From the NCBI RefSeq assembly GCF_057098645.1, contig NZ_CM169472.1: DNA of 64,000 bases; one strand, 5' to 3'. Shown piece by piece: positions 33,865 to 62,954 of the stretch. The stretch's first letter is position 1. The number at the start of each line of letters is the position of its first letter. The translations under genes and the position numbers were made by a program. The notes beneath the pieces were generated by a model. It did not search any database. It was not told the DNA's origin and saw only the letters and a list, made by a program, of their open reading frames with translations.

Positions 33865-33990
33865 ACGCTTTTCCTTGTGGATCTCAACTCGCCAGCACCT
33901 ATCTTACATGCCGGTCCGTATCAGAGATACTTTTTGAGTGGCTTTGCCGGTGATTAAAAATCAAGGAGGGTGTAACGACAAGTTGCAGGC

Positions 33991-34016
33991 ACAAAAAAAC
34001 CACCCGAAGGTGGTTT
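33991..34016 (-). terminator. rho-independent terminator at the original leuZ 3-prime flank
   Basis: aaaaaaaccaccc gaa ggtggttt hairpin; left copy of the repeat. Confidence 0.6.
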
Positions 34017-34059
34017 CACGACACTGCTTATTGCTTTGATTTTATTCTTATCTTTCCCA

Positions 34060-34115
34060 TGGTACCCGGAGCGGGACTTGAACCCGCACAGCGCGAACGC
34101 CGAGGGATTTTAAAT
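34060..34115 (-). other. tRNA-Leu 3-prime fragment (integration remnant)
   Basis: tggtacccggagcgggacttgaacccgcacagcgcgaacgccgagggattttaaat equals the 3-prime part of leuZ; 5-prime part replaced by island sequence. Confidence 0.85.
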
Positions 34116-34462
34116 TCTACGCAATATCAATGAGTTACATAGCAGTGCATTGCGAAACTTTGCTGACGTTGAATGGTCGTCTTTGCAACCACTGGCAGAA
34201 AATGGATAGCCGTAGATTGCGTTGAGCACAGAAACAGCACAGGGTAATCGTCTACTTGGTCCTGTAAAGGAGGTTGTTGCCACACAAGCTAAAGCGCTTG
34301 ACCTGCCCCCAGTATTCGGTACAACTGTCAGTTAGTAATATCTGTTCTGTGAACCGCTCTCTGAATGTGATCCATTCATAATCAGCGCTACCTTTAGAGG
34401 TTGAATACCCAGCCCCTGGTAAACATAACGTTCCAGGGGGTACTTTGCGATGAAGGATATTT

Positions 34463-36334
34463 TTACAGCGTAAATTCGTTTCCGGGTCCAGTGCCCAGGT
34501 TATTTACTATATAAGCATCTATTCTCTGATCATTAAATCGCCAGCAGTCAATGGCAAGATCCATCAGCAGGCGTTGCCTTGATGTGATGCTTTCCGCAGA
34601 CCAGTCTTGATATTCATATCCATATTTCAGCTTAAAGCGATTTAATGCAGTGTTATCACCAATTGAGTACTGGGAGTGGAGTAATCGAGTCATGATGATT
34701 TCAGAGTTTAAATATTCTGTTTGTTTTTTCAAAAACCAGTCTTCACTCAAATCATTGCAGTTATTGACAGACTGGTTAATTGTACCCTCTAATAATGTTA
34801 CATTACCAAGTTTGTAGAGATAACTTGTTCGATTTACATCAGAGAACTCCCCGTTTTCAGGGGCGTTTCGTACCGTCTGAGGAAGAATATGCTCAATTTG
34901 CATCTGCTGAATAGCCTGCTGGCTCTTTTCCGGAAAACCGCAAAGATGGCGGATATGATTCTCTAATCTACCCAATACATAACGTTGGCGATACTGAGGC
35001 GTAAAATTATAGTCATTAATAATTGAGAATCGTTCTTTAAATTCATCTAAACGCTCCACAACAAAAGGTATAAGTGTTGCTGAAACAACATTTGCAACCT
35101 CTGCTTTCGTTTTCACATCCCGAAGCTTTACAGCCCATTGAGTAAAGCGTTGCTCATATGTCTTCGATTGAATAGCCATTGTATTTGTAAAGAATAAAAA
35201 GCTCTCAAGTTGAGCACCTAAGAAATCCATTACATCATCTGAACAACTAATATCCAATGCCATTAGTAAAACCAAATGCTGACGTGAGCGATATTTATTA
35301 ATATATCCAATGTTACTTACGTTTGGAAAACGGATATTTTCACGCCAGTAGGCTGCTTCATTTGTTGCATTGACCAGGTTAGCGTATCGTTCTGATAATT
35401 TTTCCAATTCTTTGACGAGGACCATAGGGCGTGTCTTATACTGCAACGACAGTTCCCCCTCAGCTGAAATGATCCATTTATATATATCATCTTCACGCAA
35501 AATCCCGTGATGATATCGTGCCATCAGAAAGTAACGTAAAAAACGAAGCGGGTTATCACTTTCGCCGCAAGACTCAAGGTTATTAGTGATGGATTTCCAT
35601 GTTGTCTTTATTGCCGAAAACTGTTCTTCTTTTATCTGACTGAAAATCAAATTTTTAACAAGATCCATAGCATTAAGGCTGGCACCACGCTGATTGATCG
35701 TTTCGAAGATCTTTAATGCGCTACTTAAGTTCTCTGATTCAATGACAACCAGCTCAACTTTTGTTAAAAAAAAGCGAGCGAAGGAGATTAATCCATTCAA
35801 GCTATCTTGCAATTGGTATTTAAGATAATCACGAATGTGATCATACGCGTCAGCCATTTTTTTTACTGAAGCTGTTTCCGCAAAGGTATTGGTTTGCCCT
35901 TCAATTAACCGCGAAATAAATCCTCGACTTTCTTCATATTGAAGATCTAGTCTAATTAGATTTTCCTCACTATTAATATCATAACTAGAGAGCCATTCCT
36001 CAATAGTTTTCAGATATTCCAGCCCTTTTTTGTCAAGTGTATCCAATCTATCTTTTAATAGATCCCGTAAGGCACACATAGTGATGACAATAGTGGTCAA
36101 CCGCTGCTGTCCGTCAATAACATCATGCTTTTCCCCATTCTTTACGATAATAACAGAACCGAGAAAATAACCATTTTGATCTTTCTGCTCTGGTTGGTAT
36201 TCATTGTCTAAATCCATGAGAAACTGTTCAACCTGATCATCAACCTTCCATACATACTCACGTTGATAATCGGGAACTAAAAAATAATAATCGCTTAATT
36301 TTGATATATTTTTTACATCGGCTTCTATTTTCAT
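34463..36334 (-). CDS. GmrSD-family type IV restriction endonuclease-like protein (DUF262 N-terminal, DUF1524 C-terminal)
   Basis: 623-aa ORF; N-terminal DGQQR motif typical of DUF262; C-terminal EHILPQ ... N-rich motif typical of DUF1524 His-Me finger. Confidence 0.65.
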   Translation of the reverse strand: MKIEADVKNISKLSDYYFLVPDYQREYVWKVDDQVEQFLMDLDNEYQPEQKDQNGYFLGSVIIVKNGEKHDVIDGQQRLTTIVITMCALRDLLKDRLDTLDKKGLEYLKTIEEWLSSYDINSEENLIRLDLQYEESRGFISRLIEGQTNTFAETASVKKMADAYDHIRDYLKYQLQDSLNGLISFARFFLTKVELVVIESENLSSALKIFETINQRGASLNAMDLVKNLIFSQIKEEQFSAIKTTWKSITNNLESCGESDNPLRFLRYFLMARYHHGILREDDIYKWIISAEGELSLQYKTRPMVLVKELEKLSERYANLVNATNEAAYWRENIRFPNVSNIGYINKYRSRQHLVLLMALDISCSDDVMDFLGAQLESFLFFTNTMAIQSKTYEQRFTQWAVKLRDVKTKAEVANVVSATLIPFVVERLDEFKERFSIINDYNFTPQYRQRYVLGRLENHIRHLCGFPEKSQQAIQQMQIEHILPQTVRNAPENGEFSDVNRTSYLYKLGNVTLLEGTINQSVNNCNDLSEDWFLKKQTEYLNSEIIMTRLLHSQYSIGDNTALNRFKLKYGYEYQDWSAESITSRQRLLMDLAIDCWRFNDQRIDAYIVNNLGTGPGNEFTL

Positions 36335-36391: not shown

Positions 36392-36901
36392 TCACAAACG
36401 AACAGGAGAGTAGACCCCTTCTACATTACAGCTATCTCCGTCATCAAAAATCAACTCTCCTGCACTATAACCATCCATGGATAAAATAGCCTTTTCATTG
36501 AGAGCCAGACTAAGGCACATTGATGTTTTTATCATATTATCTGTACCATAAATCTCATACCAGTTATCTTCTTTTTTAGAAACCTCTACCTCATACTTTC
36601 CTGAGTCAATATTAACCATGCTAAATACATTATCTACATCACATGAATCCTTGCTATCTGTAAAAATTATTTTTTTATCATAGCCATCAACCCTGAGATA
36701 TGCGTCTTCAGAATAAGCATAAACATAACAATATTTAGTATTAACAAAAGAATCCTTCCCAGTAATTTGATATAAATTACTATCTTTTCTTGTGACATTT
36801 ATTTCCCACGTATTGGCATGAACATAACCTGGAGCCAAAAACAGGGTTAATAAGAACGGTCCAATCTTGGCTTTAAAGTTTCTAACAATTTTGAAAAACA
36901 T
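36392..36901 (-). CDS. secreted protein of unknown function with two tandem Cys-containing repeat domains
   Basis: 169-aa ORF; signal peptide MFFKIVRNFKAKIGPFLLTLFLAPGYVHA; internal repeat NLYQITGKDS...CDVDNVFSMV / NWYEIYGTDN...CNVEGVYSPV. Confidence 0.55.
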   Translation of the reverse strand: MFFKIVRNFKAKIGPFLLTLFLAPGYVHANTWEINVTRKDSNLYQITGKDSFVNTKYCYVYAYSEDAYLRVDGYDKKIIFTDSKDSCDVDNVFSMVNIDSGKYEVEVSKKEDNWYEIYGTDNMIKTSMCLSLALNEKAILSMDGYSAGELIFDDGDSCNVEGVYSPVRL

Positions 36902-36952: not shown

Positions 36953-37708
36953 CTACATATCAGCCAACAACATCCCAGCCATGCCATCCAGCCGTTTCTT
37001 GACCTTTTCCCACCCAGGCATAACCTGCCCCATCAGGCGGTAAAACTCTTCACTGTGGTTGTGCTCAGCAACATGGCATAACTCATGTAGCAAAACATAA
37101 TCGATACATTCTGAGGATGCCTTAACCAGCCATGGATTCAGGGTCAGACAGCCTTTTGCTGAACAGTTGCCCCATTGCGTTTGCATCGCCCGCAGACGTA
37201 TCGGAGGACGCTCACTGACCCAAAGGGTCTGCGGAATCAGTAAATCAAGCCTGCGCTGAAAAACATCTCTGGCACGTTCCCGATACCATTCAGCCAGCAA
37301 GGCTTTAATCTTTTCTGCCGATTTGTGTCTGACAGTCACTTCCAGACGCCCACGCAACATTTTCACTCGTTGCGGCACAGTAGCGTCTTCTGTCACTTTC
37401 AACTGATATTGCTTACCGAGATAATAATGGCTTTCTCCGCTGACATACTGACGCGGAACAATGTGTGTCTGTTGCTCCCTGAAATCACGCAGTTGCTGGT
37501 ATATCCAGCGCCCACGTTTTTTCAGCGCAGACAATACCTCGTGCTCCGGTGTTTCAGGCGGTACAGAGGCCACAACCCGGCAGTCCGGATAAACCTTGAT
37601 GAGCACCCTGCCCTTTACGACCTGACGCGGAACACACTGTACGACGATGACCTCATCACCATAGACAATGCGTAACGCTTTCATTGATGGCGATTCTTTT
37701 TCACTCAT
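36953..37708 (-). CDS. DUF45/YgjP-like zinc metallohydrolase
   Basis: 251-aa ORF with HELCHVAEHNHSEEF (HExxH...NHS); 4-nt overlap with hsdR stop. Confidence 0.6.
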   Translation of the reverse strand: MSEKESPSMKALRIVYGDEVIVVQCVPRQVVKGRVLIKVYPDCRVVASVPPETPEHEVLSALKKRGRWIYQQLRDFREQQTHIVPRQYVSGESHYYLGKQYQLKVTEDATVPQRVKMLRGRLEVTVRHKSAEKIKALLAEWYRERARDVFQRRLDLLIPQTLWVSERPPIRLRAMQTQWGNCSAKGCLTLNPWLVKASSECIDYVLLHELCHVAEHNHSEEFYRLMGQVMPGWEKVKKRLDGMAGMLLADM

Positions 37709-40700
37709 GATTTCATCAAACCAACGCGCAGTATCTGGATGATGGTTTCCACAATACGGTTAACCTGATTCATTCCGGCACCAATTTCCCGGCAGGCCGT
37801 AAACAGCAGTGGTAGCAGACTTGTCTTAACGACTTTCTCAATGTCCTGGGGGTTCAGGGAGTTTTCTGCCACCGCTTTGACGATAATGTTGTCCACGTCA
37901 AAAGCCAGCTTCGTCCACTTATCCTGCACTTGAACGTCTTTTACCACAAAAACCTCAGGTAGCTCTTTTTTAAATACACCGTAATATGCCTGAGCATGCT
38001 TGTTTACCGCCAAAGCATCCGGGATATCACTGAGCTTACGGGCTTTAACCTGTTCTTCAAACTCACGGAATAAGAGGTACTGCTTAAGTGGATGGTCGAA
38101 CAGTTTTTCAGCCTCTTCGATTGCCATACGCAGGAGTCTGGAAAAGGCCTCCTGAGCATACGGATCATCACGCAGCTCCTGCTCAATCATCTTCGTCACA
38201 CGGGTTTTAATGATGTCGGTTTCATTGCGGGTTTTATTGTTATCCCACTCTTCGGGTTTTTCGCTCTTGCCCATTTTACCGACTTCATACACGCCATCCG
38301 GTTCACGAACCTCAACGCCGGTAACATGCTTATCCAGCAATTTTTTCACCTGCTCAGCGTAGTCGTCATAATTGACCTGCTCTCCACTTACCTGCATCGC
38401 CCACTGGCGAAGGCTGGACATCTGTTTTACGGTTTCTTTATAGAGATTTCGGTCTTGTTCCGTAAAGCTCTTGTCGGTGAAGAAGGTAGCGGACTGCAGT
38501 GCCACTTTCAGGCATCCGGCAAAGGCCGTTAACGCCTCGAAGAAATCATCACGGGTTTTCTGATGGATATCGACCATCTCTCCGTCACGTTCTTCCATTT
38601 TAGGCACCAGTACTGCACGTAACTGCTCAGTATCATTTTTGTTTTTAACACCGGCAAATATGGCCCACAACTGGTTATACAGATGCGGCAGACGTTTATA
38701 TTCAGAGCTCATGGCGCTGTACAGCCCGTCAATATCCTTGATGTCGTATCCTCCCTGGGTTCGGGAGGCGAGATCCTGATATTTGCCGATAGTCGTGTCC
38801 AGTTCAGCCAGAATGCCGCGATAATCAATCAGCAGGCCAAACTTTTTCAGTGGATGCAGACGGTTTACCCTTGCAATCGCCTGGATAAGGTTGTGGGACT
38901 TAAGCGGCTTGTCGATATACAGCACGGTATTCTTCGGTTCATCAAATCCGGTGAGCAGTTTATCAACGACGATCAGTAATTTGAGCTTATCATCAGTATC
39001 GAAACGACTGATGATATTGCGGGTATACACAGACTCATCCTGCATGCCGACGTTATCTTTCCACCATTTCGTCACTTCCGGCAGTTTGCTTTCATCCACC
39101 TCAGTATTCCCTTCCCGGGTATCCGGCGGGCTGATAACTACAGCTGACTCAAACAACCCGGCTTCATCAAGATACTTTTTATATTTGATGGCGGAAATCT
39201 TGCTGTCGCAGGCAAGTTGGCCTTTCAGCCCCTCATCAATATTCTTCGAGAAGTGTGTGGCGATATCGAGTGCGATCAGCCGGATGCGGTCATCTGCACT
39301 GTAGACCTCACCTTTACGGGCATATTTACGTTTAAGGTCGGCTTTTTGCGCTTCGCTTAACCCATCGGTAATACGGTCAAACCAGGCATCTATTGCCCGA
39401 TCGTTAACCTCAAGGTCGGGAATACGTTCTTCATACAGCAAAGGTGTAACGGCTTTATCTTCTACCGCTCGCTGCATGGTATAAGCGTGGACAATCGGCC
39501 CGAATTTATTGGTGGTCTTATCTTCTTTTAGCAATGGCGTACCGGTGAATGCCACAAAGGCGGCGTTCGGCAGTGCCAGTTTCATTCGCACATGGTTCTC
39601 ACCCCCCTGGCTGCGGTGTCCTTCATCAATCAGAACGATGATGTCGGGGCTGGTATTGACGCATTCAGGCAATTTTGTCGCTGAGTTAAATTTCTGGATA
39701 AGGGTAAAGATTATACGTTCTTTACCAGAGCCAATCTGCTGTGCCAGCTTCTGACCTGAGGTCGCCATCGCTTTGGCCTTATCATCCTTCCCTGCCAGTT
39801 CGCCACCAGAGACAAAAGTGCCGCTGAGCTGCCCTTCAAGGTCCACGCGGTCCGTCACCACCACAATACGACACTGCTTCAGGCTGTCATGAAGGATCAG
39901 CGCCTTGCTGAGGAATACCATGGTGTAAGATTTACCTGACCTCGTGGTATGCCAGATCACCCCACCTTCCCTGCCCCCGTCTGGTCTGCGGGTACTGATG
40001 CGTTCCAGCAGTCTTTTTATCCCGAACACCTGCTGATAGCGGGCAACAATTTTTCCGGTTTTTTTATCAAACAGGGTGAAGAAGCGGGTCATCTCCAGCA
40101 GACGTTCCGGTGAAAGCAGACTGATGAGCAGCTTATCCTGCCCGCTGACTGCCAGTTCCCCCCCATCGATTAACTGTTGATACCATTTGAGATCGACTGA
40201 AGGACGATGATCAAACAACGCATGAATTTGTTCAGTCGATAACTGATGGTTGCGCAGCGCATACATCTGCGGATCGGTAATATCTTCTTCGCGCCATGCC
40301 GCCCAGAATTTCATTGGCGTATGGCATGTACCGTAGCGCCCGTCATGACCGTTAATCGAAAGTAATAACTGGCTGTAGACAAACAGCTGCGGGATTTCAT
40401 CGTTGAACTGGTTGCGGATACTCTGGGATATCCCCTCGTCAATGGTTGGCCCTTTCTTGCCATGACCAGCCGGGCTTTTCGCTTCAATAACAGCCAGCGG
40501 GATACCATTAACAAAGCAGACAATATCCGGTCTGCGGGTTTCAACACCGCCTGACCGCAATACCGTAAATTCTTCAGTAAAATGGAACTGGTTATTTTCC
40601 GGATGTTCCCAGTCGATCAGCGCAATGGTGGGGTTGACCTTCTTGCCATCGACAAATTCGGTGACGGCGATACCGTAGAGCAGATGGTTATACATCCGTT

Positions 40701-40989
40701 CATTGGCTTTGAGCAGCCCTTCATTCAGCGCCGGAGAACAGACCTGTGATATCAGGTTATCCAGTGCTTTTTCCGATAACTGGCAGTTTTTGCCACCCGC
40801 CATAAAGGAACGCTTCGACAGCTCTTCACGCAGAACCGGACGCAGCACCACCTCATCCTGTTTATAGCCCCGGTAATCCATAATCTGTTTCGGAGATAAA
40901 AACGTCCAGCCGAGGCTGGTCAGTAACGTCAGTGCCGGGATTTTGGCGCTGTATTCTTCCTGGAATTTAGGTTGGTAGTGCTTATCCAC
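37705..40989 (-). CDS. hsdR: type I restriction enzyme R subunit
   Basis: 1094-aa ORF; N-terminal PD-(D/E)xK-like IEAK motif, SF2 helicase motifs including DEGHRS. Confidence 0.85.
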   Translation of the reverse strand: MDKHYQPKFQEEYSAKIPALTLLTSLGWTFLSPKQIMDYRGYKQDEVVLRPVLREELSKRSFMAGGKNCQLSEKALDNLISQVCSPALNEGLLKANERMYNHLLYGIAVTEFVDGKKVNPTIALIDWEHPENNQFHFTEEFTVLRSGGVETRRPDIVCFVNGIPLAVIEAKSPAGHGKKGPTIDEGISQSIRNQFNDEIPQLFVYSQLLLSINGHDGRYGTCHTPMKFWAAWREEDITDPQMYALRNHQLSTEQIHALFDHRPSVDLKWYQQLIDGGELAVSGQDKLLISLLSPERLLEMTRFFTLFDKKTGKIVARYQQVFGIKRLLERISTRRPDGGREGGVIWHTTRSGKSYTMVFLSKALILHDSLKQCRIVVVTDRVDLEGQLSGTFVSGGELAGKDDKAKAMATSGQKLAQQIGSGKERIIFTLIQKFNSATKLPECVNTSPDIIVLIDEGHRSQGGENHVRMKLALPNAAFVAFTGTPLLKEDKTTNKFGPIVHAYTMQRAVEDKAVTPLLYEERIPDLEVNDRAIDAWFDRITDGLSEAQKADLKRKYARKGEVYSADDRIRLIALDIATHFSKNIDEGLKGQLACDSKISAIKYKKYLDEAGLFESAVVISPPDTREGNTEVDESKLPEVTKWWKDNVGMQDESVYTRNIISRFDTDDKLKLLIVVDKLLTGFDEPKNTVLYIDKPLKSHNLIQAIARVNRLHPLKKFGLLIDYRGILAELDTTIGKYQDLASRTQGGYDIKDIDGLYSAMSSEYKRLPHLYNQLWAIFAGVKNKNDTEQLRAVLVPKMEERDGEMVDIHQKTRDDFFEALTAFAGCLKVALQSATFFTDKSFTEQDRNLYKETVKQMSSLRQWAMQVSGEQVNYDDYAEQVKKLLDKHVTGVEVREPDGVYEVGKMGKSEKPEEWDNNKTRNETDIIKTRVTKMIEQELRDDPYAQEAFSRLLRMAIEEAEKLFDHPLKQYLLFREFEEQVKARKLSDIPDALAVNKHAQAYYGVFKKELPEVFVVKDVQVQDKWTKLAFDVDNIIVKAVAENSLNPQDIEKVVKTSLLPLLFTACREIGAGMNQVNRIVETIIQILRVGLMKS

Positions 40990-41058: not shown

Positions 41059-42843
41059 TTATGATGAAAAGAACGGCGAGTCCCGATAAAGGCGATTGTA
41101 CTTGACCTGTTCTGTTTCGCCCTTGTTTACATTACCAAATTTCTCCTGATGCGTCGTACAGCAGGAACCACAGGATGCACAAATAAATCGTCCTTCTGAA
41201 CATTTTTCATGCAAATCCCTGGCGTCAATTATTTCGCTGCATTTGTAACCAATACAGTGATTAATGTAATGCCCGATACCAAACTGTTCGCACGAATGAC
41301 TGGCACATTTAAAGACGGTCAGGCGATACGCGGCCTGGAAAGGTTTTTTCACAAATCCTTTCGACTTTGTATCCCAGACGCTGACTTCCACACGAGCATA
41401 TTTCATATCTGGAACCATCAGCACCCCACAACTTCGGCAATGCAAGCGGGAATGTAATTCTCTGATACGATTGAAATACCCAGCCAGTTTAATTGGGAAA
41501 TCCCGCTTAGAAGGTTCGCCTGCAATCAGATAGGTCATGCCATAGTGGGCAAGCCAGTCATAAATAGTGAAGTCGATGTAATCCCGACTGAGGTCGGGTA
41601 GTACCTGCGGATCATGGCAGATTTTCGAACGACAAAGGAATTTTTTCTCTATCGTTCCGTCAGGTTGTTTTGCATTCCAGTGAAATGCCTCACAGGATAA
41701 TTTTAAATTCCGGGAACGAATTTTCAATGAGCTACACTGTGGGAACAATTTGAAAACAGAAGGATGGCTTACCGGGATTTTACCCGACAACACTCCCTGC
41801 CATATCTCATGCAGAATAATACTCAGAACGGACTGTTCATCGTTACGCCCAATCAGCGGTAACAATTTACTCAGAATAAAGTATTCAGGGTCAGAAGAAA
41901 TTTCAGTATTCGACTCAATATCATTAACAAAACTGAAATCTTTCCTGAACATCTTCTGTTTAATCAAATACTTATTGACAAAAGGACTAATCACGGAATG
42001 TTTATAAAATTGCTCTCTCGATGAGAATTTCTGCTGATAGGCATCACGGACAAATGGTTGTATATCCATTTTATTTTTCGTGAAACTACGTCGAACAAAA
42101 TTCTCTATATCATCATGCCGATGTTCAAGAATCCGCTCGCTGCTTATACAATCGTAAAATGCCAGGTAGAGAATAGCACTTATAGATATATGGCTGAGTA
42201 ATTCATTGATGATGTCCGATGTTGAAGCCCCCTGGCAATCCGTAGCCGCAGAACACCTTTTCACCCAAACAGCGAACTGATCAATGTTATTATCGATAAA
42301 TGACGAAGGCATGACTGCAGGAGATATTTGTTGTGCGGTCAAATCATCAAAATTCTTATCAGAGGCGAAAAGTGCAAACTGGTTATCGTAGTTACGTGAT
42401 TTTAAAAATAGCGGCAAGACTTTTGTAGCAGCTATATCACTGGTAACTAACCGAATTATAGCCCTTTCGCCAAAGGACTGAGTGAGAAAATTAATAACGC
42501 AGTCACGATAACGCCAACGAGCGAAATCAACGCCCTCCTCAATAATAGCCCGGAGATATTCAATAAGGAGCTCAGCCGTCTCCTCATCTGTTTTATCAAG
42601 AATGTGAACATTAAAAGCCGTAGGCTTACCATTTTTACCTGTACCTTCCCTGAACAGCACCGGTGCATTGTCTGCGGGTGTATAGTTCCGGCTTATCTCA
42701 TTCTTATGAAAAAACAGCTCATTACCATTCTCTGATAAGAGAAAGCCAAAGTTATTCTCCCGATCCGTTTTGCTGTTGTAGCCTCCGAACCAGAGAACAT
42801 TTCCCATGTACCACCGGGAACGATCCAGATTGTTCACTGCCAT
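41059..42843 (-). CDS. protein of unknown function: N-terminal cold-shock-like domain, C-terminal Cys/His-rich putative zinc-ribbon region
   Basis: Start chosen at MAVNNLDR with RBS GAAGGGGG 7 nt upstream (594 aa); WFGGYNSKTDRENNFGFL resembles the CSD KWFN..KGFGFI core; C-terminal clusters CRSCG, CASHSC, CASCGSCC. Confidence 0.55.
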   Translation of the reverse strand: MAVNNLDRSRWYMGNVLWFGGYNSKTDRENNFGFLLSENGNELFFHKNEISRNYTPADNAPVLFREGTGKNGKPTAFNVHILDKTDEETAELLIEYLRAIIEEGVDFARWRYRDCVINFLTQSFGERAIIRLVTSDIAATKVLPLFLKSRNYDNQFALFASDKNFDDLTAQQISPAVMPSSFIDNNIDQFAVWVKRCSAATDCQGASTSDIINELLSHISISAILYLAFYDCISSERILEHRHDDIENFVRRSFTKNKMDIQPFVRDAYQQKFSSREQFYKHSVISPFVNKYLIKQKMFRKDFSFVNDIESNTEISSDPEYFILSKLLPLIGRNDEQSVLSIILHEIWQGVLSGKIPVSHPSVFKLFPQCSSLKIRSRNLKLSCEAFHWNAKQPDGTIEKKFLCRSKICHDPQVLPDLSRDYIDFTIYDWLAHYGMTYLIAGEPSKRDFPIKLAGYFNRIRELHSRLHCRSCGVLMVPDMKYARVEVSVWDTKSKGFVKKPFQAAYRLTVFKCASHSCEQFGIGHYINHCIGYKCSEIIDARDLHEKCSEGRFICASCGSCCTTHQEKFGNVNKGETEQVKYNRLYRDSPFFSS

Positions 42844-54421: not shown

Positions 54422-54434
54422 GTTGTTCCTTCTG

Positions 54435-55970
54435 TCAGTGGTAGTAGCCCGGACCACGCAGGTTTTCATGCTCTGAAGCATATGCCGGATGTTGTTCGCC
54501 CTGGCGGGATAATGGAAGCTCCAGGTTCTCCCGATGGTGACGCAGCAGATTGTCGATAAAGCGTCTGTCAGGGGCGTTATAGTGCAGGGCAACGTAACAG
54601 GCCTTTTCCAGCCGTTCCGGGCCGTATTTTTTCTGAAGTGCCAGCAGCCCCAGAACTGCACGATAAGCCAGTTCCGGATGGGGTTTTGCCTTCAGCATGG
54701 ATTCAACCACCCGGCCTGTGGACGGGCCCGTACGTTTTCCCTGCTCGATCAGGCGTTCCGGTGTCCATGTCCCGTGCTGCCGGTGGCGCTCTGGCATGTG
54801 AAGCGGATTGGTTGTGTGTTTATATTCATGTGTGCTGCGCGGATGTTGCGCCACACACTGCCCCTTGTGCCAGAGCTGTACCACCGACTGCCCCGCCTTC
54901 AGTGACAGACGCTGACCGACCAGTTCGTGTGGAACGGAGTACCAGTGACGGGCATATTCAACGTGGTAGTCAGGGCCAACCTTCACAGCTTTGTATTCCG
55001 TGTATTCATAAGGTGCCAGAGGCAGCGGAGAGAGTGCTGGCGCATCCAGTATGCGGAAGCGTTCTGCACGGGTTTGATTGCCGTACCCCTTCATTGGCCG
55101 GTTATTCATGTCTGTCAGTAACTCCCTAAGGCGCGCATTCAGCGCCCTGAGCGTGTGGAAGGTTTCATTACGGATGCGGGCAAGAAGCCATCGTTCAACG
55201 ATGAGGACGCCGTTTTCTGCTTTTGGTTTATCTTTAGGTTTGCGTGGTCGGGCCGGGATGATAACCGTGCCATAGTGCTCAGCCAGTGCCTGATAACTGT
55301 CGTTGATGACAGGCTCATATCGATCGGCCTTTTTCACTGCGCTTCTGAGGTTATCGGGGATGAGCAGCTTCGGTACGCCGCCCAGGAAGGTCAGGCAACG
55401 GCTGTGGGCATTTAACCATGACATCATGTCCTGACCTTCGCACGCTTCAACGTAGGTATAGTTGGACGCCCCCATTACGGCCACGAAGATTGCCACGCGG
55501 CGTATCTCACCGGTGTCCGGATTAATAACAGGAACCGTAGGACCACAGAAGTCGATAAAAAGCTTTTCGCCGGCACGATGCTCCTGGCGCATGGAGAGAC
55601 GTCGCGTTTTTTTCCACTCCCGGTAGCAACGGCAGAAGTGCGAGTATCCCATCGCTTTGTTACCCGCCTGTGCCTTGTATTCCATCCACAACAGTTGCCG
55701 CGTCACACCTGGTTTTCTCATTTCCGTATCGAAGTACAACATGTCAGGCATTACAAGCTCTGATGCAAAGGTGTCTTTGGGCGGAAAAATGAGTTTCTCC
55801 AGCGTGTCATGGGATATATCAGCAGGTAATGGCCATGACAGAGAAGAGGCTTTGAAGCGGGCAAGAACCTCAAAAACGGTTGAGGCGCTGATGTGTAACG
55901 TCAGTCCGATACAACGGTTAGTCAGCTTCTTGTCGAACTTGAGCTGAAGGATCTTAAAACAGGTTTCCAT
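54435..55970 (-). CDS. istA: IS21-family transposase IstA
   Basis: Start chosen at METCFKIL; DDE integrase-type fold; precedes istB. Confidence 0.7.
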   Translation of the reverse strand: METCFKILQLKFDKKLTNRCIGLTLHISASTVFEVLARFKASSLSWPLPADISHDTLEKLIFPPKDTFASELVMPDMLYFDTEMRKPGVTRQLLWMEYKAQAGNKAMGYSHFCRCYREWKKTRRLSMRQEHRAGEKLFIDFCGPTVPVINPDTGEIRRVAIFVAVMGASNYTYVEACEGQDMMSWLNAHSRCLTFLGGVPKLLIPDNLRSAVKKADRYEPVINDSYQALAEHYGTVIIPARPRKPKDKPKAENGVLIVERWLLARIRNETFHTLRALNARLRELLTDMNNRPMKGYGNQTRAERFRILDAPALSPLPLAPYEYTEYKAVKVGPDYHVEYARHWYSVPHELVGQRLSLKAGQSVVQLWHKGQCVAQHPRSTHEYKHTTNPLHMPERHRQHGTWTPERLIEQGKRTGPSTGRVVESMLKAKPHPELAYRAVLGLLALQKKYGPERLEKACYVALHYNAPDRRFIDNLLRHHRENLELPLSRQGEQHPAYASEHENLRGPGYYH

Positions 55971-56594
55971 AGTGCTCCTGGATTTTCTCTTTCTGGACAT
56001 TGACGTCTCCACTGGTTTAAACACGGCAATGGAGACTGTGGTGAAAAGAGTTAATTCCCGGAGTGACTGGCAGGATGCCAATCAATGATCGGAAGCATGC
56101 CAAATCGTGATCGATTGTGATGCCAAACTGTGATCGGAGATGGATGCCAAATCATGATCGATTCGAATGCCAAACTGCGATCGATTCAGATGCCATTTTG
56201 CAGCCGGGGGGGACGAACTCCCGGCATTTTTTCGGAGTTAACTATGAGCAATAATTTGCAGGACATCCTCGCTGCCGCATCGGGGTATCAGTCCGTGACT
56301 TCAGAGCCAGCGCTCAATCTTAAAAGACCTAAAACGCTTGATGATTATCCTGTGATACCACCTGCATCAAAAAAAGTATCTGTTATTTCAAGTGACCTGA
56401 CACTCCATATCGGTTTTGATACCGAATATGTTTTCAATCCTGAAACACAACAGAATGATATTCTGTCATATCAGAGTTATGTTGTCTTACCCGATAATAC
56501 AGGTATATCGAACATTATCTATCCACCTGACTCACAGAAAAAATCCCGGCTGTCTTTTAAGAACTTTCTCTGTCAAACGATTATGGATTTGCCC

Positions 56595-57500
56595 CTATAT
56601 TTCCAGACATCTGTTATCACTTAACCCATTACAAGCCCGCTGCCGCAGATATTCCCGTGGCGAGCGATAACCCAGCGCACTATGCGGATGCCATTCGTTA
56701 TAATGCTCGAACGCCTCTGCAAGGTTCTTTGCTGCCGTTAACCCGTCTGGTTTGGGCATGATACTGATGTAGTCACGCTTTATCGTTTTCACGAAGCTCT
56801 CTGCTATTCCGTTACTCTCCGGACTCCGCACCGCCGTGTTCTTCGGTTCAAGTCCCAACATCCGGGCGAACTGGCGTGTTTCATTAGCCCGGTAGCATGA
56901 ACCATTATCCGTCAGCCACTCCACTGGAGACGACGGAAGATCGTTGCCGAAGCGGCGTTCCACCGCTCCCAGCATGACGTCCTGTACTGTTTCACTGTTG
57001 AAGCCGCCGGTAGTCACCGCCCAGTGCAGTGCCTCACGATCACAGCAGTCCAGCGCGAACGTGACACGCAGTCTCTCTCCGTTATCACAGCAGAACTCGA
57101 ACCCGTCAGAGCACCATCGCTGATTGCTTTCTTTCACGGCCACTCTGCCTGTATGTGCCCGTTTCGATGGCGGTACAGCAGGTTTTCGCTCAAGCAACAG
57201 CGCATTCTGGCGCATGATCCGGTAAACACGTTTGGCATTGATCGCAGGCATACCATCAAGTTCTGCCTGTCTGCGAAGCAGCGCCCATACCCGACGATAA
57301 CCATACGTGGGCAGCTCTCCGATAACATGGTGTATACGGAGAAGCACATCCGTATCATCAGTGTGACGACTGCGGCGGCCATCCATCCAGTCATCGGTTC
57401 GTCTGAGAATGACGTGCAACTGCGCACGCGACACCCGGAGACAACGGCTGACTAAGCTTACTCCCCATCCCCGGGCAATAAGGGCGCGTGCGCTATCCAC
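56595..57500 (-). CDS. insD: IS2 transposase InsD
   Basis: 301-aa ORF. Confidence 0.85.
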
Positions 57501-57823
57501 TTTTTTGCCCGTCCATATTCAACGGCTTCTTTGAGGAGTTCATTTTCCATCGTTTTCTTGCCGAGCAGGCGCTGGAGTTCTTTAATCTGCTTCATGGCGG
57601 CAGCAAGTTCAGAGGCAGGAACAACCTGTTCTCCGGCGGCCACAGCAGTAAGACTTCCTTCCTGGTATTGCTTACGCCAGAGAAATAACTGGCTGGCTGC
57701 TACACCATGTTGCCGGGCAACGAGGGAGACCGTCATCCCCGGTTCAAAGCTCTGCTGAACAATTGCGATCTTTTCCTGTGTGGTACGCCGTCTGCGTTTC
57801 TCCGGCCCTAAGACATCAATCAT
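57458..57823 (-). CDS. insC: IS2 InsC
   Basis: Start at [13 protein letters not shown], 121 aa. Confidence 0.85.
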
Positions 57824-59974
57824 CTGTTCTCCAATGACTAGTCTAAAAACTAGTATTAAGACTATCACTTATTTAAGTGATACTGGTTGTCTGGAGATTC
57901 AGGGGGCCAGTCTAGATTACACCGCTTCTTGAAACGGGTGTGATTACAAAATGGCCCGGTATTATTAATATATATGCGCATTTCATTCGTGCGGATATCA
58001 CCTCCTTTGCCAATTTCTGGTCAGACTACAAAATTCTTCTGAAAGGAATACGCGGTACTGTCAGCAGCTTCAAAAATCGTTACGGTATCGATTTTGATGA
58101 ACAGCAGGAACGTCGCGTAAAGACTGAACAGATAATGTTTGACAAACGAACTTCCCCTCCGCGTTGCAGTAACGTAGCTTTCATCGATACACTGCTTATC
58201 ACTCCCGGGGGTATGGGTCTGGCTGAATGTGGTGAATTACTGGGTCTTCCCAAACTGACCATTCCTGCACCTTATTCCATAACCAATATGCGTGAATATC
58301 TTCTGGGCGACAGAGCAGGGTTTGAAGCCTATGCTCTGCGGGATGCCGAGATTGCGGTTCGTTATGCTTTACAGGTTCGCAATTTTTGCGCCCGGGAGCT
58401 GATGATTGATCGTGTCCCCGCCACCATCGGGGCGATGGCAGTTTCACGGTTCACCAAAACACTTAAAGAAAACAATATGTCTCCTGAAGTCTGCCTTGGG
58501 ACACACATTAAAACCCGTGAACTCTGGCTCACGGAGAAACAGGCATTCCGGACGATTAAAAACCCCGCCAGTGTTCCTTCAAGAGAGCTGTTTGAAACGT
58601 TCCCGATCAACTGTTACCACGGCGGACGCAATGAGTGTTTTATGATGGGGGTTACACCGTCTGATCACTGGTATGACTACGATCTGGCTGGAGCGTATAC
58701 CACCGGGCTATTAGATATCCTCATACCCGATTACGGAAACATCCGCCTCAGTAAAAATCCGGACGATTACTGTGGGCATGTAATGGGATTTGCGTTTGTC
58801 ACATTTCAGTTCCCGGAATCAGTTCCCTATCCCAGCCTGCCGGTTCGGACCGATCAATATGGGTTATTCTTTCCATTAAGTGGCGAATCATGGGCAACGG
58901 CACCTGAAATCGAACTTGCTCTGTCGCTCGGGGCAGAGATGACGATCCATAATGGGATCATCGTCCCCTGGATCTGTGACACCTCCCCACATAACAGCGA
59001 ATCAACATCGGTGTTTCTTCCCTTTGTTCAACAGGTCCGTGAGAACCGTAATCGCCATATTAAAGGTTCTCTGGAGGAGAAATTCTGGAAAGAAATTGGC
59101 AACTCGCTTTATGGCAAACTTGCTCAGGGCCTTCGCGCCAAAACCGCCTTTGATACTGCCCGTGGATTAAACAGATCCCTCCCACCATCATCGGTTACTC
59201 AGCCATTCTTTGCTGCGCATGTGACGGGATTTATCCGCGCCGTTGTCGGGGAACTCATGAATGCTTTGCCTTCTGATTCATCGGTTGTCAGCGTCACAAC
59301 CGATGGCTTTTTGACAAATTGCCCACTTAACAAGATAAACATGAGCGGTCCACTGTCTTCCCGCTTCCAGTCGCTGTGCGATATTGTTGATCCGGGTTCA
59401 TCAATGTTGACATGTAAGCATGAGGTCAGCCAGCTTATCGCCATGAAAACCCGGGGGCAGTTAACCTATAGAGCTATTCAGGGAAAACCTGTTGTTCATG
59501 CCAGGGCTGGCGTCAAACCTCCTGCCGATATTCCACGCAGTGACTATAACGACTATATGGTAGATCTTTACCTTAATCGTTTACCCGGTCAGACGTTATC
59601 CCGAAGTACGTTGATATCAACGCGTGAGATGTGGCTGTCGGAAAGCGATCTGGTATCCCGGGAACAGGATATCCGTCTTAATCTGGAATTCGATTTCAAA
59701 CGCCAGCCCGTACAGCCCGCCATGAATGAAGGGCATTTACTGATGTCTTCCCGCCCATGGGATAATATGGAAGAGGCTCTGCAGCAACGCTCTCTTTTCG
59801 ACGACTGGCGGCAAACGCATACACTGAAGACCCTGGCTGACTGGGATGACTGGTGTGATTTTCTCTATTGCCGGACGGTGTTTTCTGATATGAAACTAAA
59901 AGTCGGAAGCAAACGTAGTGATGATATTTTAGTCAGACTATTTCTCCGGGCGCTGACTCAGTGCCAATGGGGGC

Positions 59975-60523
59975 TTATGCTGAAAGATAAAAAAAGTTAT
60001 TCCTGTAAAGAGGTTGCTGAATGGCTGACGTCAGAAGGCTATTCAGTAACATGTCAAAAAGCACCTGCTGGATCTCCCGGGCCCGAAGGTCGCAGTAACG
60101 TATCTTCCCCAGACGAGGTTCAATGTATTGCGTGAAACGCTGAACATCCTTATCCCAGGACTTTTTATGGCGTTTGATGAACGGAACATAGGTCTGGTGA
60201 AAAAACTCACTAAGTGTTGGCATCGCACGATAATTATCGCGTTCTGCTTTAGGGTCATTTCCCAGTGCAATCGCCTCCTTGTGACGACGAGCTATCTGAC
60301 GGGCTGTCCCCACATCGATTTCAGGGAATCTGCCAATACTGATACTTTTTTTGGTACCGTGGAATGTGTAGCGCAGGAGGAAACGTTTGTTACCCGTTCG
60401 ACCTGAGAGACATTTGAGGCCTATGACCTCGGTATCTGATACCTCAAGCTCTGTAGATCGGGTATCTGTGTTTGCCGGAAGGGCTTTGATGGATGAATTG
60501 GTGAATCGGAAGGATTTTTGCAT
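59975..60523 (-). pseudogene. N-terminal fragment of a P4-type tyrosine integrase (arm-binding domain), truncated
   Basis: MQKSFRFTNSSIKALP ... GRFPEIDVGTARQIARRHKEAIALGNDP resembles integrase N-terminal domain; no catalytic domain follows; overlaps piPolB 3-prime end on the opposite strand. Confidence 0.5.
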
Positions 60524-60709
60524 ATTTATCCTCATGTATCTGATTGATATCATGAAAATAATATATATCTGAAGGTGTTTTTATTACGGGGCAGGATTGA
60601 AGAATGGAAAAGCTATTAGACGCGTACAAACGGATATTGCAGGAAGTTAACGCCCAGTCATTTAACCTGAATGAGGATAAATACTCAGGCGTCTTTTTAC
60701 CCGTGCCGT

Positions 60710-61766
60710 GGCTTTGTTGAATAAATCGAACTTTTGCTGAGTTGAAGGATCAGATCACGCATCTTCCCGACAACGCAGACCGTTCCGTGGCAAAGCAAAA
60801 GTTCAAAATCACCAACTGGCCCACCTACAATAAAGCCCTCATCAACCGTGGCTCCATAACTTTCTGGCTGGATGATGAAGCTATTCAGGCCTGGTATGAG
60901 TCAGCAACACCTTCTTCACGAGGCAGACCTCAGCGCTATTCTGACCTTGCCATCACGACTGTGCTGGTCATTAAACGCGTATTCAGGCTGACCCTGCGCG
61001 CTGCGCAGGGCTTTATTGATTCCATTTTTTCTCTGATGAACGTTCCGCTACGCTGCCCGGATTACAGCTGTGTCAGCAGGCGGGCAAAGTCGGTTAATGT
61101 CAGTTTCAAAACGCCCACCCGGGGTGAAATCGCACATCTGGTGATTGATTCCACCGGGCTGAAGGTCTTCGGTGAAGGCGAGTGGAAAGTCAAAAAGCAT
61201 GGCCAGGAACGCCGCCGTATCTGGCGTAAGCTGCATCTCGCCGTTGACAGTAAAACACATGAAATCATCTGTGCAGACCTGTCGCTGAACAACGTTACGG
61301 ACTCAGAGGCCTTCCCCGGGTTAATCCGGCAAACCCACCGGAAAATCAGGTCAGCCGCCGCCGATGGCGCTTACGATACCCGGCTATGTCACGATGAACT
61401 GCGGCGTAAGAAAATCAGCGCGCTTATCCCTCCCCGAAAAGGTGCGGGCTACTGGCCCGGTGAATATGCAGACCGTAACCGTGCAGTGGCTAATCAGCGA
61501 ATGACCGGGAGTAATGCGCGGTGGAAATGGACAACAGATTACAACCGTCGCTCGATAGCGGAAACGGCGATGTACCGGGTAAAACAGCTGTTCGGGGGTT
61601 CACTGACGCTGCGTGACTACGATGGTCAGGTTGCGGAGGCTATGGCCCTGGTACGAGCGCTGAACAAAATGACGAAAGCAGGTATGCCTGAAAGCGTGCG
61701 TATTGCCTGAAAACACAACCCGCTACGGGGGAGACTTACCCGAAATCTGATTTATTCAACAAAGCC
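60710..61766 (+). mobile_element. IS903-like element, copy 2, 1057 bp, inverted relative to copy 1
   Basis: Same inverted repeats; 9-bp target duplication CCGTGCCGT at 60701-60709 and 61767-61775. Confidence 0.9.
60742..61710 (+). CDS. IS903-like transposase
   Basis: 322-aa ORF identical in translation to the copy at 44245-45213. Confidence 0.85.
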   Translation: MKDQITHLPDNADRSVAKQKFKITNWPTYNKALINRGSITFWLDDEAIQAWYESATPSSRGRPQRYSDLAITTVLVIKRVFRLTLRAAQGFIDSIFSLMNVPLRCPDYSCVSRRAKSVNVSFKTPTRGEIAHLVIDSTGLKVFGEGEWKVKKHGQERRRIWRKLHLAVDSKTHEIICADLSLNNVTDSEAFPGLIRQTHRKIRSAAADGAYDTRLCHDELRRKKISALIPPRKGAGYWPGEYADRNRAVANQRMTGSNARWKWTTDYNRRSIAETAMYRVKQLFGGSLTLRDYDGQVAEAMALVRALNKMTKAGMPESVRIA

Positions 61767-62578
61767 CCGTGCCGTTTGAAGAATACTGGCATTCACCGAT
61801 AAAAATCATGCTGGTTGGACGTGAAACCGCAGGCTGGAATACGCTGAATGGTAAGAATACGATATCACGGGTGTTGGGACTTATACCTGACGTCACCATC
61901 GGGCAAGTGGTTGAAGAAGCTGTAGATCGTTACAGGAAACATCTTCCGGTACAAAATTATGGCACCGCCAACCTCAAATCACGTAGCCGCTTCACGCAAT
62001 ATCATTTCAGGCTGGCCCGGGAGCTTAATATTCTTCCCCAGGCAATCGTGTATGCCAATCTACTGGCGTGGGATTACGACGGACTGACCCCTCTCAATCG
62101 CCCTCAAAATGAAGTGCAGGAAGTCATATTAGCCTCGCTGAAGCTACTGGCGGTACAAATTAAACACCTTGAGCCTGATTTCATCATCTTTGCATCTGGA
62201 GCCCGGAGAACAGACTACATCATAAAACAGGTGCTTACTGAGCTAGGCGGCTATGAGACTTCTTCAGTCATTCCGGGGAAGCTGTGGGAGTTCAAAACAG
62301 GTAATACAATCTGTTTCAGAATTGCCCATCCAAGGGCTATGCGCGGACACCAGAAGTACAGAGATGAGGTGATTGCACGAATTAAGCAACTTTGTACTCA
62401 GGGTGGCTAGAGCATTACAGCTTGCTCAGCAGGGCCCCTTCCCGGAAGAGTACCGGAAAACAGGCAAAGCAACCTGGTTCTCTATGCTGGAGGCGACACG
62501 TTCGATTCGGCATTGCCAGGCTGGAGATTGCAGCTCATTGCACCCCGTGAGCACAGGATATGCACAGGACATGAATTT

Positions 62579-62708
62579 CAGGCACAAAAAAACCACCCGG
62601 AGGTGGTTTCACGACACTGCTTATTGCTTTGATTTTATTCTTATCTTTCCCATGGTACCCGGAGCGGGACTTGAACCCGCACAGCGCGAACGCCGAGGGA
62701 TTTTAAAT
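62579..62708. repeat. attR: 130-bp direct repeat (leuZ 3-prime part plus downstream flank)
   Basis: Matches 33986-34115 with 1 mismatch. Confidence 0.9.
62584..62609 (-). terminator. rho-independent terminator downstream of leuZ (copy within attR)
   Basis: aaaaaaaccaccc gga ggtggttt. Confidence 0.6.

Positions 62709-62878: not shown

Positions 62879-62954
<76 letters not shown>

Follow-up and report, generated by a model that had tools for sequence, protein, structure and literature searches.

Within a 64,000-nucleotide window of an Escherichia coli chromosome, about 28.7 kb are enclosed between two 130-bp direct repeats at the leuZ tRNA gene, which raises the question of what was inserted there and whether it can still leave. 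A preliminary description of the sequence had proposed an immobilised pipolin, that is, an integrative mobile element encoding piPolB, a primer-independent family-B DNA polymerase (PMC5695915). E. coli pipolins are all reported to lie at Leu-tRNA with att repeats, LREC252 excepted (PMC7385651), and their site is between pgsA and yecA (PMC11551731). From the evidence below we conclude, with a probability of about 0.93, that the region is an E. coli leuZ pipolin that was inserted by a tyrosine recombinase and is now a fossil decayed in three layers. Its features are collected in Table 1.

Table 1. Features of the leuZ element and its borders; positions are those of the window.
Feature	Position	Strand	Remarks
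attL	33986–34115		displaced copy: leuZ 3′ 56 nt and 74 bp of terminator flank; adjoins yecA
DUF262 protein (HEC-06/GmrSD-like type IV restriction candidate)	34463–36334	−	intact; PADLOC HEC-06, E = 1.3e-79
169-aa hypothetical protein	36392–36901	−	intact
M48-family metallopeptidase	36953–37708	−	intact; RefSeq annotation of identical protein; 251/251 aa, 100% in alignment
hsdR, Type I restriction subunit R	37705–40989	−	intact ORF; TIGR00348, E = 3.9e-136; PADLOC REase_I, E = 0
Cold-shock-domain protein, 594 aa	41059–42843	−	intact; within R-M operon
YecA-family SEC-C protein (PADLOC candidate PDC-S12)	42866–43549	−	intact; E = 8.5e-98
hsdS	43546–45826	−	split by IS903-like copy a; PADLOC Specificity_I
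IS903-like (IS5 family) copy a	44189–45245	−	1057 bp; 9-bp target duplication GTGAGAAGC; splits hsdS
hsdM pseudogene	45816–47339	−	CAG>TAG at codon 397 (46149–46151)
410-aa hypothetical protein	47646–48878	+	intact
376-aa hypothetical gene	49280–50126	+	pseudogene; +1 A frameshift at ~49613–49620; 285-bp deletion at 49711
Tyrosine recombinase beside xis	50270–51400	+	intact; phrog_1 integrase, E = 5e-52; putative IntP2 type, by synteny
xis-like HTH remnant	51423–51608	+	TIGR01764 and phrog_66 matches on intact homologue
212-aa conserved pipolin orphan gene	51598–53549	+	split after codon 45 by IS629-like element
IS629-like IS3-family element	51733–53042	+	1310 bp; target duplication AAC; ALIL frameshift pseudoknot
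ISSso4-like IS21-family element (istA/istB)	53564–56202	−	2639 bp; target duplication GCCGGG
piPolB	56244–60135	+	split by IS2 after nt 340 (codon 113/114)
IS2-family element	56584–57914	−	1331 bp; target duplication GATTA; splits piPolB
IntSXT-type integrase remnant, att-proximal	60047–60523	−	N-terminal 158 codons left, confined to Arm DNA-binding part
UDG-superfamily gene (predicted)	60604–62410	+	246 aa once reconstituted; interrupted by IS903-like copy b after codon ~36
IS903-like copy b	60710–61766	+	target duplication CCGTGCCGT; splits UDG-like gene
attR	62579–62708		overlaps 3′ end of functional leuZ
leuZ, tRNA-Leu(UAA)	62653–62739	−	intact; ARAGORN (taa) and Rfam; last of glyW-cysT-leuZ cluster

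Boundaries and target site

A repeat search of positions 30000–64000 returned a single direct-repeat family (33983–34115 and 62576–62708, spacing 28,593), within which pairwise alignment gave an unbroken 130-bp core with one mismatch, A versus G. The pair is not a chance resemblance, because self-BLAST of the whole window matched nothing other than these att copies and one IS pair. The right repeat consists of the 3′ 56 nt of the tRNA (62653–62708) and 74 bp of downstream flank (62579–62652), the tRNA-Leu being followed by tRNA-Cys and then tRNA-Gly in the ARAGORN order. RNA folding of this flank produced a 9-bp GC-rich stem and then a U run, with a hairpin z-score of only −1.13 against shuffles. 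The length, single mismatch and enclosed distance of the repeats, as well as their division into tRNA and flank, had been given in the preliminary description and agree with these searches; the terminator placed inside the repeat is borne out by folding, while a strict consensus terminator scanner made no call there.

The only base that differs between attL and attR lies within the terminator hairpin loop, and the attL allele is the one present at the empty sites of O157:H7 and O55:H7. Mapping of the crossover through this mismatch was weak and was dropped, since both att copies of PapRG-06-5 carry the same base. The comparison with an empty yecA-leuZ junction that had been suggested earlier was clear: the flanks joined in silico (33600–34115 and 62709–63100) were recovered at 100% identity and in one piece at the uninterrupted sites of the O157:H7 and O55:H7 chromosomes, and this synthetic site was covered to at least 80% at one place in 3,789 of 5,426 complete genomes.

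The element would bring along a tRNA 3′ end and terminator of its own and insert through site-specific recombination by a tyrosine recombinase, so that the tRNA remains complete at attR while the 130-bp copy it displaced comes to lie at attL beside yecA. This mechanism is inferred from anatomy because excision and integration of intact E. coli pipolins are "still to be confirmed in vivo" (PMC9710591).

Identity of the polymerase

Removal of IS2 and one copy of its target duplication from the split polymerase gene restored an intact 851-codon ORF. Profile searches of the product gave a single Pfam match (PF03175, E = 0.024), no NCBIfam match and no relevant match in a PDB sequence search, and after these weak results its identity was decided by the published motif signature. 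In piPolB, SxTTDG replaces YxDTDS, KH-X8-KTRG replaces KxY, and acidic residues of the Exo and PolA motifs are conserved (PMC5695915). The reconstituted protein contains SVTTDG at 571, KHEVSQLIAMKTRG (KH-X8-KTRG) at 613–626, D59/E61 and D368, in residues and positions that match the published enzyme of E. coli 3-373-03_S1_C2 (compared with PMC5695915). The canonical KxY and YxDTDS of protein-primed PolBs are absent, these replacement motifs standing in their place. Judged by this signature, the polymerase is a true piPolB and not a protein-primed PolB.

A phage-type polymerase had been named earlier as the finding that would speak against a pipolin, and the region could then be an ordinary island at a tRNA gene, or what is left of a prophage, that happens to carry a protein-primed PolB. 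The sole Pfam match is indeed to an organellar/viral PolB family, the PHROG DNA-polymerase matches are weak, and tblastn of the intact integrase against phage records returned assorted integrases at 24–28% identity. However, the motif test, with both replacement motifs at their published positions, places the polymerase with piPolB and refutes this reading; furthermore, no terminal-protein or phage structural gene was matched among the proteins searched, and the same element of other strains is included in published pipolin datasets. We consider the chance of a non-pipolin origin vanishingly small. With terminal att-like direct repeats, attR on tRNA-Leu and a piPolB between them, the region is a pipolin, and the proposal of a pipolin with its hallmark set at leuZ is upheld by the piPolB signature, the att repeats and the match to the published layout.

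Core module, integrases and UDG-like gene

The core module near attR comprises an integrase, xis, an orphan gene, piPolB, a second integrase and the UDG-like gene. The slot near piPolB where IntP2 and an excisionase are expected holds an intact integrase followed by the xis-like HTH remnant; the family labels IntP2 and IntSXT are putative, as both are assigned from gene order relative to the published layout. The first integrase aligned over 376 of 376 aa to the copy of an IS-free relative with 99.7% identity and retains all of its R-K-H-R-H-Y catalytic residues. A 143-bp deletion has deprived the xis-like gene of its RBS, start ATG and five initial codons, and an in-frame TGA lies directly upstream.

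Compared with the complete pipolin of MDK6L1, this copy lacks 5,820 bp, and the deletion junction is at 60050. The deletion takes the catalytic domain of IntSXT together with genes for DUF2787, DUF726 and an HTH regulator (DUF2787/WYL core), and is the reason why the DUF2787 and WYL/HTH regulator genes of MDK6L1 are absent here. It also created the 3′ end of piPolB, a fusion in which the last 43 codons gave way to 28 unrelated ones. The same junction was found in 31 of 446 matching genomes. The gammaproteobacterial core includes an IntSXT beside the integration site, DUF2787 and WYL/HTH regulator genes around it, and an IntP2-type integrase with an excisionase near piPolB (PMC11551731); in this copy the IntSXT lacks its catalytic domain. 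A truncated pipolin clade with an IntSXT-piPolB deletion has already been described (PMC11551731, PMC7385651), and this copy is a degenerate member of that subgroup rather than a non-member.

The UDG-like gene was traced to the 246-aa ORF adjoining attR. Its product had no Pfam match and no PDB sequence match, and a single-sequence AlphaFold prediction was unusable (pLDDT 50), but an alignment of 42 sequences resolved the fold (AF2, pLDDT 89.7). The top structural matches of this model in the PDB were all UDG-superfamily enzymes, namely UdgX, SMUG1 and T. maritima family 4 (E down to 2e-5, TM 0.37–0.48), and GRETxGWN and HPR are invariant across the 42 homologues. The protein is a predicted member of the UDG superfamily with its alpha/beta fold and motif A/B active-site loops. 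The 376-aa and 410-aa hypotheticals were also tried as the UDG-like gene and rejected, with Pfam, PHROGs, PADLOC and PDB all blank.

Insertion sequences

The damage amounts to five IS, three deletions, one stop codon and one frameshift. Relative to the IS-free element of PapRG-06-5, the window carries five additional insertions, each flanked by a target duplication, and has lost two short stretches, and the lengths balance exactly (28,593 − 7,426 = 21,167 = 21,595 − 428). The preliminary description had stated that every hallmark gene was disrupted by an IS. This holds for piPolB (IS2) and the UDG-like gene (IS903-like) but not for the integrase, which is intact, nor for the excisionase gene, whose start was lost through a deletion with no IS involved. 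The ISSso4-like element stands 41 bp upstream of the piPolB ATG and separates the gene from upstream transcription. A search of the 5,426 complete E. coli genomes in RefSeq for the junction between IS2 and piPolB gave no match.

The two IS903-like copies are inverted and 100% identical over 1057 bp, and each has a full-length 322-aa transposase ORF, as might be expected of a Tn903-like composite able to mobilise the 15.5 kb that stretch between hsdM and the IntSXT remnant. Against this, the 9-bp target duplications match separately for each copy, which means that the two arrived independently and that nothing has yet moved or been inverted; moreover, most of the enclosed genes are pseudogenes. 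A composite is extremely unlikely. The unit bounded by the two copies measures 17.6 kb.

Defence cargo

The attL side carries the exchangeable cargo, namely DUF262/HEC-06, a Type I R-M system with an embedded M48 peptidase, the cold-shock-domain protein and PDC-S12. HEC-06, Type I R-M and PDC-S12 thus lie in the attL half, distal to the tRNA, and published pipolins have such a two-module structure with cargo that includes these three types (PMC11551731). The separate defence module noted earlier was recovered here, as were all items of the earlier cargo list (family-B polymerase, UDG-like gene, integrase, excisionase-like HTH and defence genes), and the suggested comparison with published E. 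coli pipolins gave agreement in site, two-module structure and cargo types. The DUF262 protein aligned over 623 of 623 aa to the IS-free relative. The PDC-S12 protein is a paralogue of chromosomal YecA (33199–33864; 57.5% identity). The Type I R-M system is dead: hsdR is intact, hsdM contains the TAG, and hsdS is split, tblastn returning it as two fragments (aa 186–404 and aa 1–194).

Order of decay

The layers of decay were ordered by which strains share each lesion, with three relatives compared. O145:H28 strains have a flank 100% identical to that of the window, and the host backbone matches E. coli O145:H28; one O145 strain, FWSEC0002, belongs to the published pipolin set. RM9872 (O145, NZ_CP028379.1) and RM12761 (O145:H28, NZ_CP007133.1), with backbones 99.9–100% identical, have both the 5.8-kb deletion and the xis deletion. 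The hsdM of RM9872 is nonsense-interrupted according to its annotation ('internal stop'), and the 376-aa gene of RM12761 is split as in this copy. None of the five IS insertions of the window is present at these sites in either O145 relative. The first layer would therefore be the 5.8-kb deletion common to the published truncated clade. The second, also seen in O145 relatives, would comprise the xis start deletion, the hsdM nonsense codon, and the frameshift and 285-bp deletion of the 376-aa gene. IS2, the IS629-like and ISSso4-like elements and the two IS903-like copies would have come last.

Each of these O145 relatives has further damage of its own. RM9872 retains an intact piPolB (851 aa) and has three IS629-type copies at other sites, with IS629 insertions and deletions around int and the orphan gene, while RM12761 has lost 9 kb and carries an IS629-type insertion at piPolB nt ~280, 60 bp upstream of the IS2 site of the window. 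Repeated, independent hits have affected the core module within the O145:H28 lineage (RM12761, RM9872 and this copy). Selection to silence a costly piPolB module or an IS3-family hot spot at the piPolB 5′ end, in place of neutral decay, or a Tn903-like composite of the core could each be imagined, though even taken jointly they are improbable. The first 800 bp of piPolB are broken in 12 of 286 genomes; in the three broken genes listed the matches start at 208, 275 and 542, and because these starts are scattered a 5′ hot spot is not convincing.

Mobility

No piPolB, UDG-like protein, HsdM or HsdS can be produced from this copy, and its xis lacks a start codon. The element has probably lost its own excision and replication and would be inherited vertically as a fixed island, with HEC-06, PDC-S12 and a few other ORFs as its sole potentially active remainder. 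Alternatively, the intact integrase might still excise a circle, the loss of piPolB, xis and IntSXT only cutting the frequency. That integrase keeps its full length and its catalytic residues, the att sites are identical at 129 of 130 positions, and which of the two integrases acts at them has been left open (PMC11551731). Several observations count against this. First, xis has neither start codon nor RBS. Second, IntSXT, the proposed primary integrase (PMC11551731), keeps only its Arm-binding part. Third, truncated pipolins co-diverge with their hosts, which has been taken to indicate low transfer (PMC7385651). Fourth, the element occupies the same site in three O145 relatives, in which decay was independent. 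Lastly, an excised circle would not be replicated by a polymerase of its own. Continued mobility is therefore highly unlikely, and the immobilised state proposed in the preliminary description is very probable, given an xis without a start and an IntSXT without its catalytic part.

Significance

The element type, the leuZ att site, the defence cargo and the clade with the IntSXT-piPolB deletion are already known, and this copy is an ordinary one, of little importance beyond bookkeeping. It does offer a clear worked example of the layered decay of an integrative element, from a shared deletion through lineage-level point lesions to strain-specific IS. It also shows how often piPolB and the UDG-like gene leave annotation pipelines as "hypothetical". 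The strain could possibly serve as a natural piPolB-null, xis-null control for experiments on pipolin excision and fitness.

Comparison with known systems

One of the nearest counterparts is the pipolin of 3-373-03_S1_C2, whose piPolB has been characterised and with which this element shares the piPolB residues D59/E61, D368, SVTTDG, K613, H614 and K623-T-R625-G, as well as tyrosine recombinases, an excisionase, a Type I R-M system and att direct repeats at a tRNA (PMC5695915). It differs in that its piPolB is split by IS2, has an IS21-family element upstream and ends in the 28 unrelated codons instead of the last 43. The truncated enterobacterial subgroup has the same IntSXT-piPolB deletion with the Arm part left (PMC11551731, Fig. 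3B, pipolin 2), and the Arm DNA-binding part is likewise what is left of the integrase in the Arm-only XerC_2 pipolins (PMC7385651). Also common to that subgroup are ISs near IntP2, the tRNA-Leu site between yecA and pgsA, and the cargo types Type I R-M, PDC-S12 and HEC-06. Unlike in that subgroup, no co-integrated prophage lies beside this copy, and its five IS copies are a heavier load than in the relatives examined.

Casposons and polintons are likewise mobile elements with their own family-B polymerase. These self-synthesising transposons encode a protein-primed PolB with canonical KxY and DTD motifs, integrate via Cas1 or retroviral-type integrases, and have terminal inverted repeats. The leuZ element, in contrast, has tyrosine recombinases and a piPolB, and its ends in the repeat search are direct att repeats at a tRNA rather than inverted ones.

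An insertion at leuZ

Pairwise alignment bore out the 130-bp direct repeats with one mismatch claimed in the preliminary description: their cores are unbroken and differ by a single A/G mismatch, and a repeat search of 30000-64000 returned one direct-repeat family (33983-34115 and 62576-62708, spacing 28,593 bp). Because this att pair and one insertion sequence (IS) pair were the sole matches in a whole-window self-BLAST, chance is ruled out for the att repeat. ARAGORN and Rfam placed tRNA-Leu(UAA) at the right repeat, followed by tRNA-Cys and tRNA-Gly, a run known as the glyW-cysT-leuZ cluster, adjoining pgsA. As also proposed earlier, the repeat comprises exactly the 3' 56 nt of leuZ and 74 bp of downstream sequence including the terminator, which folded into a GC-rich hairpin of 9 bp with a U run behind it and was not called by a strict pattern scanner. 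The sole attL/attR difference, 34007 (A) versus 62600 (G), lies in the loop of this hairpin; the attL base is the allele of the O157:H7 and O55:H7 empty sites, and PapRG-06-5, a baboon isolate with an IS-free relative of the element, has A in both copies, so the G is specific to attR of the window's sublineage.

The suggested check for an empty yecA-leuZ site was run with a synthetic junction (33600-34115 fused to 62709-63100, 908 nt). It matched O157:H7 and O55:H7 chromosomes in one piece at 100% over 908 nt, and at least 80% of it was covered at one place in 3,789 of 5,426 complete E. coli genomes. By sequence comparison, the 28.7-kb region is thus a genuine insertion, and its empty site is known. 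The left flank (1-33000), in which no IS was found and which matches O145:H28 strains at 100% identity, is ordinary core genome, with flagellar and chemotaxis genes (flhA, cheA, tar, tap), argS, and araFGH to yecA. Since the first 25 kb of the window are 100% identical to O145:H28 RM12761 and RM13516 and O145:NM FWSEC0002, the host belongs to the O145:H28 lineage.

Identity of the polymerase and UDG-like genes

Database searches said little about the polymerase: Pfam gave a weak match (PF03175, E=0.024), and NCBIfam and PDB sequence searches gave nothing relevant. When the IS2-family element and one GATTA copy were removed, an uninterrupted 851-codon ORF (ATG at 56244) was obtained, differing from the PapRG-06-5 protein at 7 residues. 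It contains FDTEY with D59/E61, D368, SVTTDG at 571-576 and KHEVSQLIAMKTRG at 613-626. In primer-independent family-B polymerases (piPolBs), SxTTDG replaces the YxDTDS and KH-X8-KTRG the KxY of protein-primed and RNA-primed PolBs (PMC5695915), and the residue numbers mutated in the E. coli 3-373-03_S1_C2 piPolB are the positions of these motifs (PMC5695915). Diagnostic motifs at published positions identify the polymerase as a piPolB and argue against its grouping with phage protein-primed PolBs, the outcome that would have undone the pipolin assignment. RefSeq names the same protein variously "hypothetical protein", "DNA polymerase", "DNA-directed DNA polymerase" and "DNA polymerase type-B family protein", so annotation-based surveys would undercount pipolins.

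The 246-aa ORF adjoining attR belongs to a UniRef cluster with members named "Uracil-DNA glycosylase-like domain-containing protein", and had no match in Pfam, NCBIfam or PDB sequence searches. When it was modelled with AlphaFold from 42 homologues (pLDDT 89.7), all structural matches belonged to the UDG superfamily (UdgX, SMUG1, T. maritima family 4 and TDG/MUG; E down to 2e-5, TM 0.37-0.48), and UdgX, SMUG1 and family 4 came nearest to the predicted fold. Homologues from Enterobacterales, Pseudoalteromonas, Marinobacter and Stutzerimonas all carry GRETxGWN and HPR unchanged. The model confidently predicts a UDG-superfamily fold.

Lesions of the element

Compared with PapRG-06-5, the element carries five insertions, all with target-site duplications, and two small deletions. 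Subtracting 7,426 bp of IS and duplications from the att spacing of 28,593 leaves 21,167, the same as the PapRG-06-5 att spacing of 21,595 minus the 428 bp of the two small deletions; all bases between the att repeats are thereby explained. IS families were called with NCBIfam; the names IS903 and IS629 were assigned from known lengths, ends and duplication sizes, the ISSso4-like label is backed by RefSeq annotation of 100%-identical copies, and Rfam found an ALIL frameshift pseudoknot in the IS629-like element. All five ISs lie within 21 kb of element and none in the 35 kb of core genome that flank it, which is consistent with relaxed selection on the element.

Features of the leuZ element, by position in the window unless another record is named
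Feature	Position	Size	Detail
YecA	33199-33864		chromosomal
attL core	33986-34115	130 bp
Hypothetical protein	36392-36901	169 aa
M48 metallopeptidase	36953-37708
Cold-shock-domain protein	41059-42843	594 aa
PDC-S12	42866-43549		YecA-family SEC-C protein, 57.5% identical to YecA
IS903-like copy a	44189-45245	1057 bp	duplication GTGAGAAGC; within hsdS
hsdM nonsense	46149-46151		CAG>TAG, codon 397
Small deletion 1	49711	285 bp	versus PapRG-06-5
Integrase adjoining xis	50270-51400	376 aa
Small deletion 2	51422/51423	143 bp	versus PapRG-06-5
IS629-like, IS3 family	51733-53042	1310 bp	duplication AAC; within 212-aa conserved orphan gene
ISSso4-like, IS21 family	53564-56202	2639 bp	duplication GCCGGG; 41 bp 5' of piPolB ATG
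IS2 family	56584-57914	1331 bp	duplication GATTA; within piPolB
IntSXT remnant	60047-60523	158 codons	att-proximal integrase
UDG-like gene, reconstituted	60604-62410	246 aa
IS903-like copy b	60710-61766	1057 bp	duplication CCGTGCCGT; splits UDG-like gene
attR core	62579-62708	130 bp
tRNA-Leu(UAA)	62653-62739		minus strand
IS629-type in RM12761 piPolB	L004 12246-13557		60 bp upstream of window's IS2 site (window span 56523-56583)
piPolB in another record	L001 26649-29204		example of inconsistent RefSeq naming
Genes lost in 5,820-bp deletion			108-aa ORF, HTH regulator, DUF726, DUF2787, two small ORFs (versus MDK6L1)

IS903-like copies a and b, mutually inverted, share 100% identity over 1057 bp, and the 15.5 kb between them, from hsdM to the IntSXT remnant, has a Tn903-like composite geometry. 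Since each copy is still flanked by a separate 9-bp target duplication, the pair has neither inverted the segment nor transposed jointly so far. A composite transposon is a residual reading, unsupported beyond suggestive geometry.

The earlier statement that every hallmark gene is IS-disrupted holds for piPolB and the UDG-like gene. The integrase adjoining xis is intact (376/376 aa, 99.7% identity; phrog_1, E=5e-52), with the catalytic R, K, HxxR, H and Y present. The xis-like gene, whose intact homologue is an excisionase-family HTH protein (TIGR01764 and phrog_66), has lost its Shine-Dalgarno, ATG and first five codons to the 143-bp deletion, and an in-frame TGA lies directly upstream of the remnant. 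That reading was therefore wrong in detail, as not all damage is due to ISs and a key 5,820-bp deletion was missed. Of 446 genomes matching a query made of the 3' part of piPolB and the sequence downstream, most break at 60050 and 31 span it; the complete pipolin of MDK6L1 has 5,820 bp that the window lacks. This deletion replaced the last 43 piPolB codons with 28 read-through codons and removed about 240 C-terminal codons of IntSXT, whose N-terminal remnant is annotated "Arm DNA-binding domain".

The first 800 bp of piPolB were found in 286 of 5,426 complete genomes (5.3%), unbroken in 274 and broken in 12, and matches in the three broken cases listed start at scattered positions (208, 275, 542). 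Disruption is thus a minority state, though not a unique one, and does not cluster at a hot spot. The IS2::piPolB junction was absent from all complete RefSeq E. coli genomes searched. In two O145 strains piPolB was hit independently, 60 bp apart, by two different IS3-family elements, an IS629-type one in RM12761 and IS2 in the window. Selection against piPolB is another residual reading, likewise unsupported beyond suggestive geometry.

The proposed defence module was recovered by PADLOC as HEC-06 (DUF262 gene, E=1.3e-79), PDC-S12 (E=8.5e-98) and Type I R-M (hsdR, hsdS, hsdM), all known pipolin cargo (PMC11551731). With hsdM nonsense-interrupted and hsdS split, the Type I R-M system is dead in this copy. 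As yecA lies directly outside attL, the element adjoins a paralogue of its own cargo gene PDC-S12. The cold-shock-domain, M48 and 169-aa proteins, in or beside the R-M operon, had no PADLOC match and are 99-100% conserved in relatives.

State of the element and proposed order of decay

From its anatomy, a pipolin's tyrosine recombinase would join an element-borne attP (leuZ 3' end and terminator) to chromosomal leuZ, and piPolB would replicate the excised circle primer-free. The window's copy has interruptions in piPolB, the UDG-like gene, the orphan gene, hsdS and hsdM; its xis lacks a start and its IntSXT a catalytic domain. The piPolB, xis and IntSXT lesions agree with the earlier view of an immobilised pipolin, and we infer a vertically inherited fossil, which may at most still express HEC-06, PDC-S12, HsdR (of no use by itself), the M48 peptidase, the cold-shock-domain protein and the lone integrase.

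This is a known element, and the configuration with the 5,820-bp deletion is published (PMC11551731); pipolins whose XerC_2 keeps only the Arm domain were tied to co-phylogeny with the host (PMC7385651). Three relatives suggest the order of lesions. The 5.8-kb deletion is probably the oldest, since non-O145 strains such as PapRG-06-5, with intact xis and hsdM, also carry it. The xis deletion is common to the window, O145 RM9872 and RM12761. RM9872 shares a nonsense-interrupted hsdM but differs in that its piPolB is intact, its three IS629-type copies sit at other places and a deletion runs from a 410-aa gene into int; RM12761 shares the split 376-aa hypothetical gene (49280-50126 in the window) but differs in a 9-kb deletion and its own IS629-type insertion. 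The IS insertions thus appear strain-specific and the shared deletions older, which suggests that the proposed excision machinery was lost before the ISs arrived.
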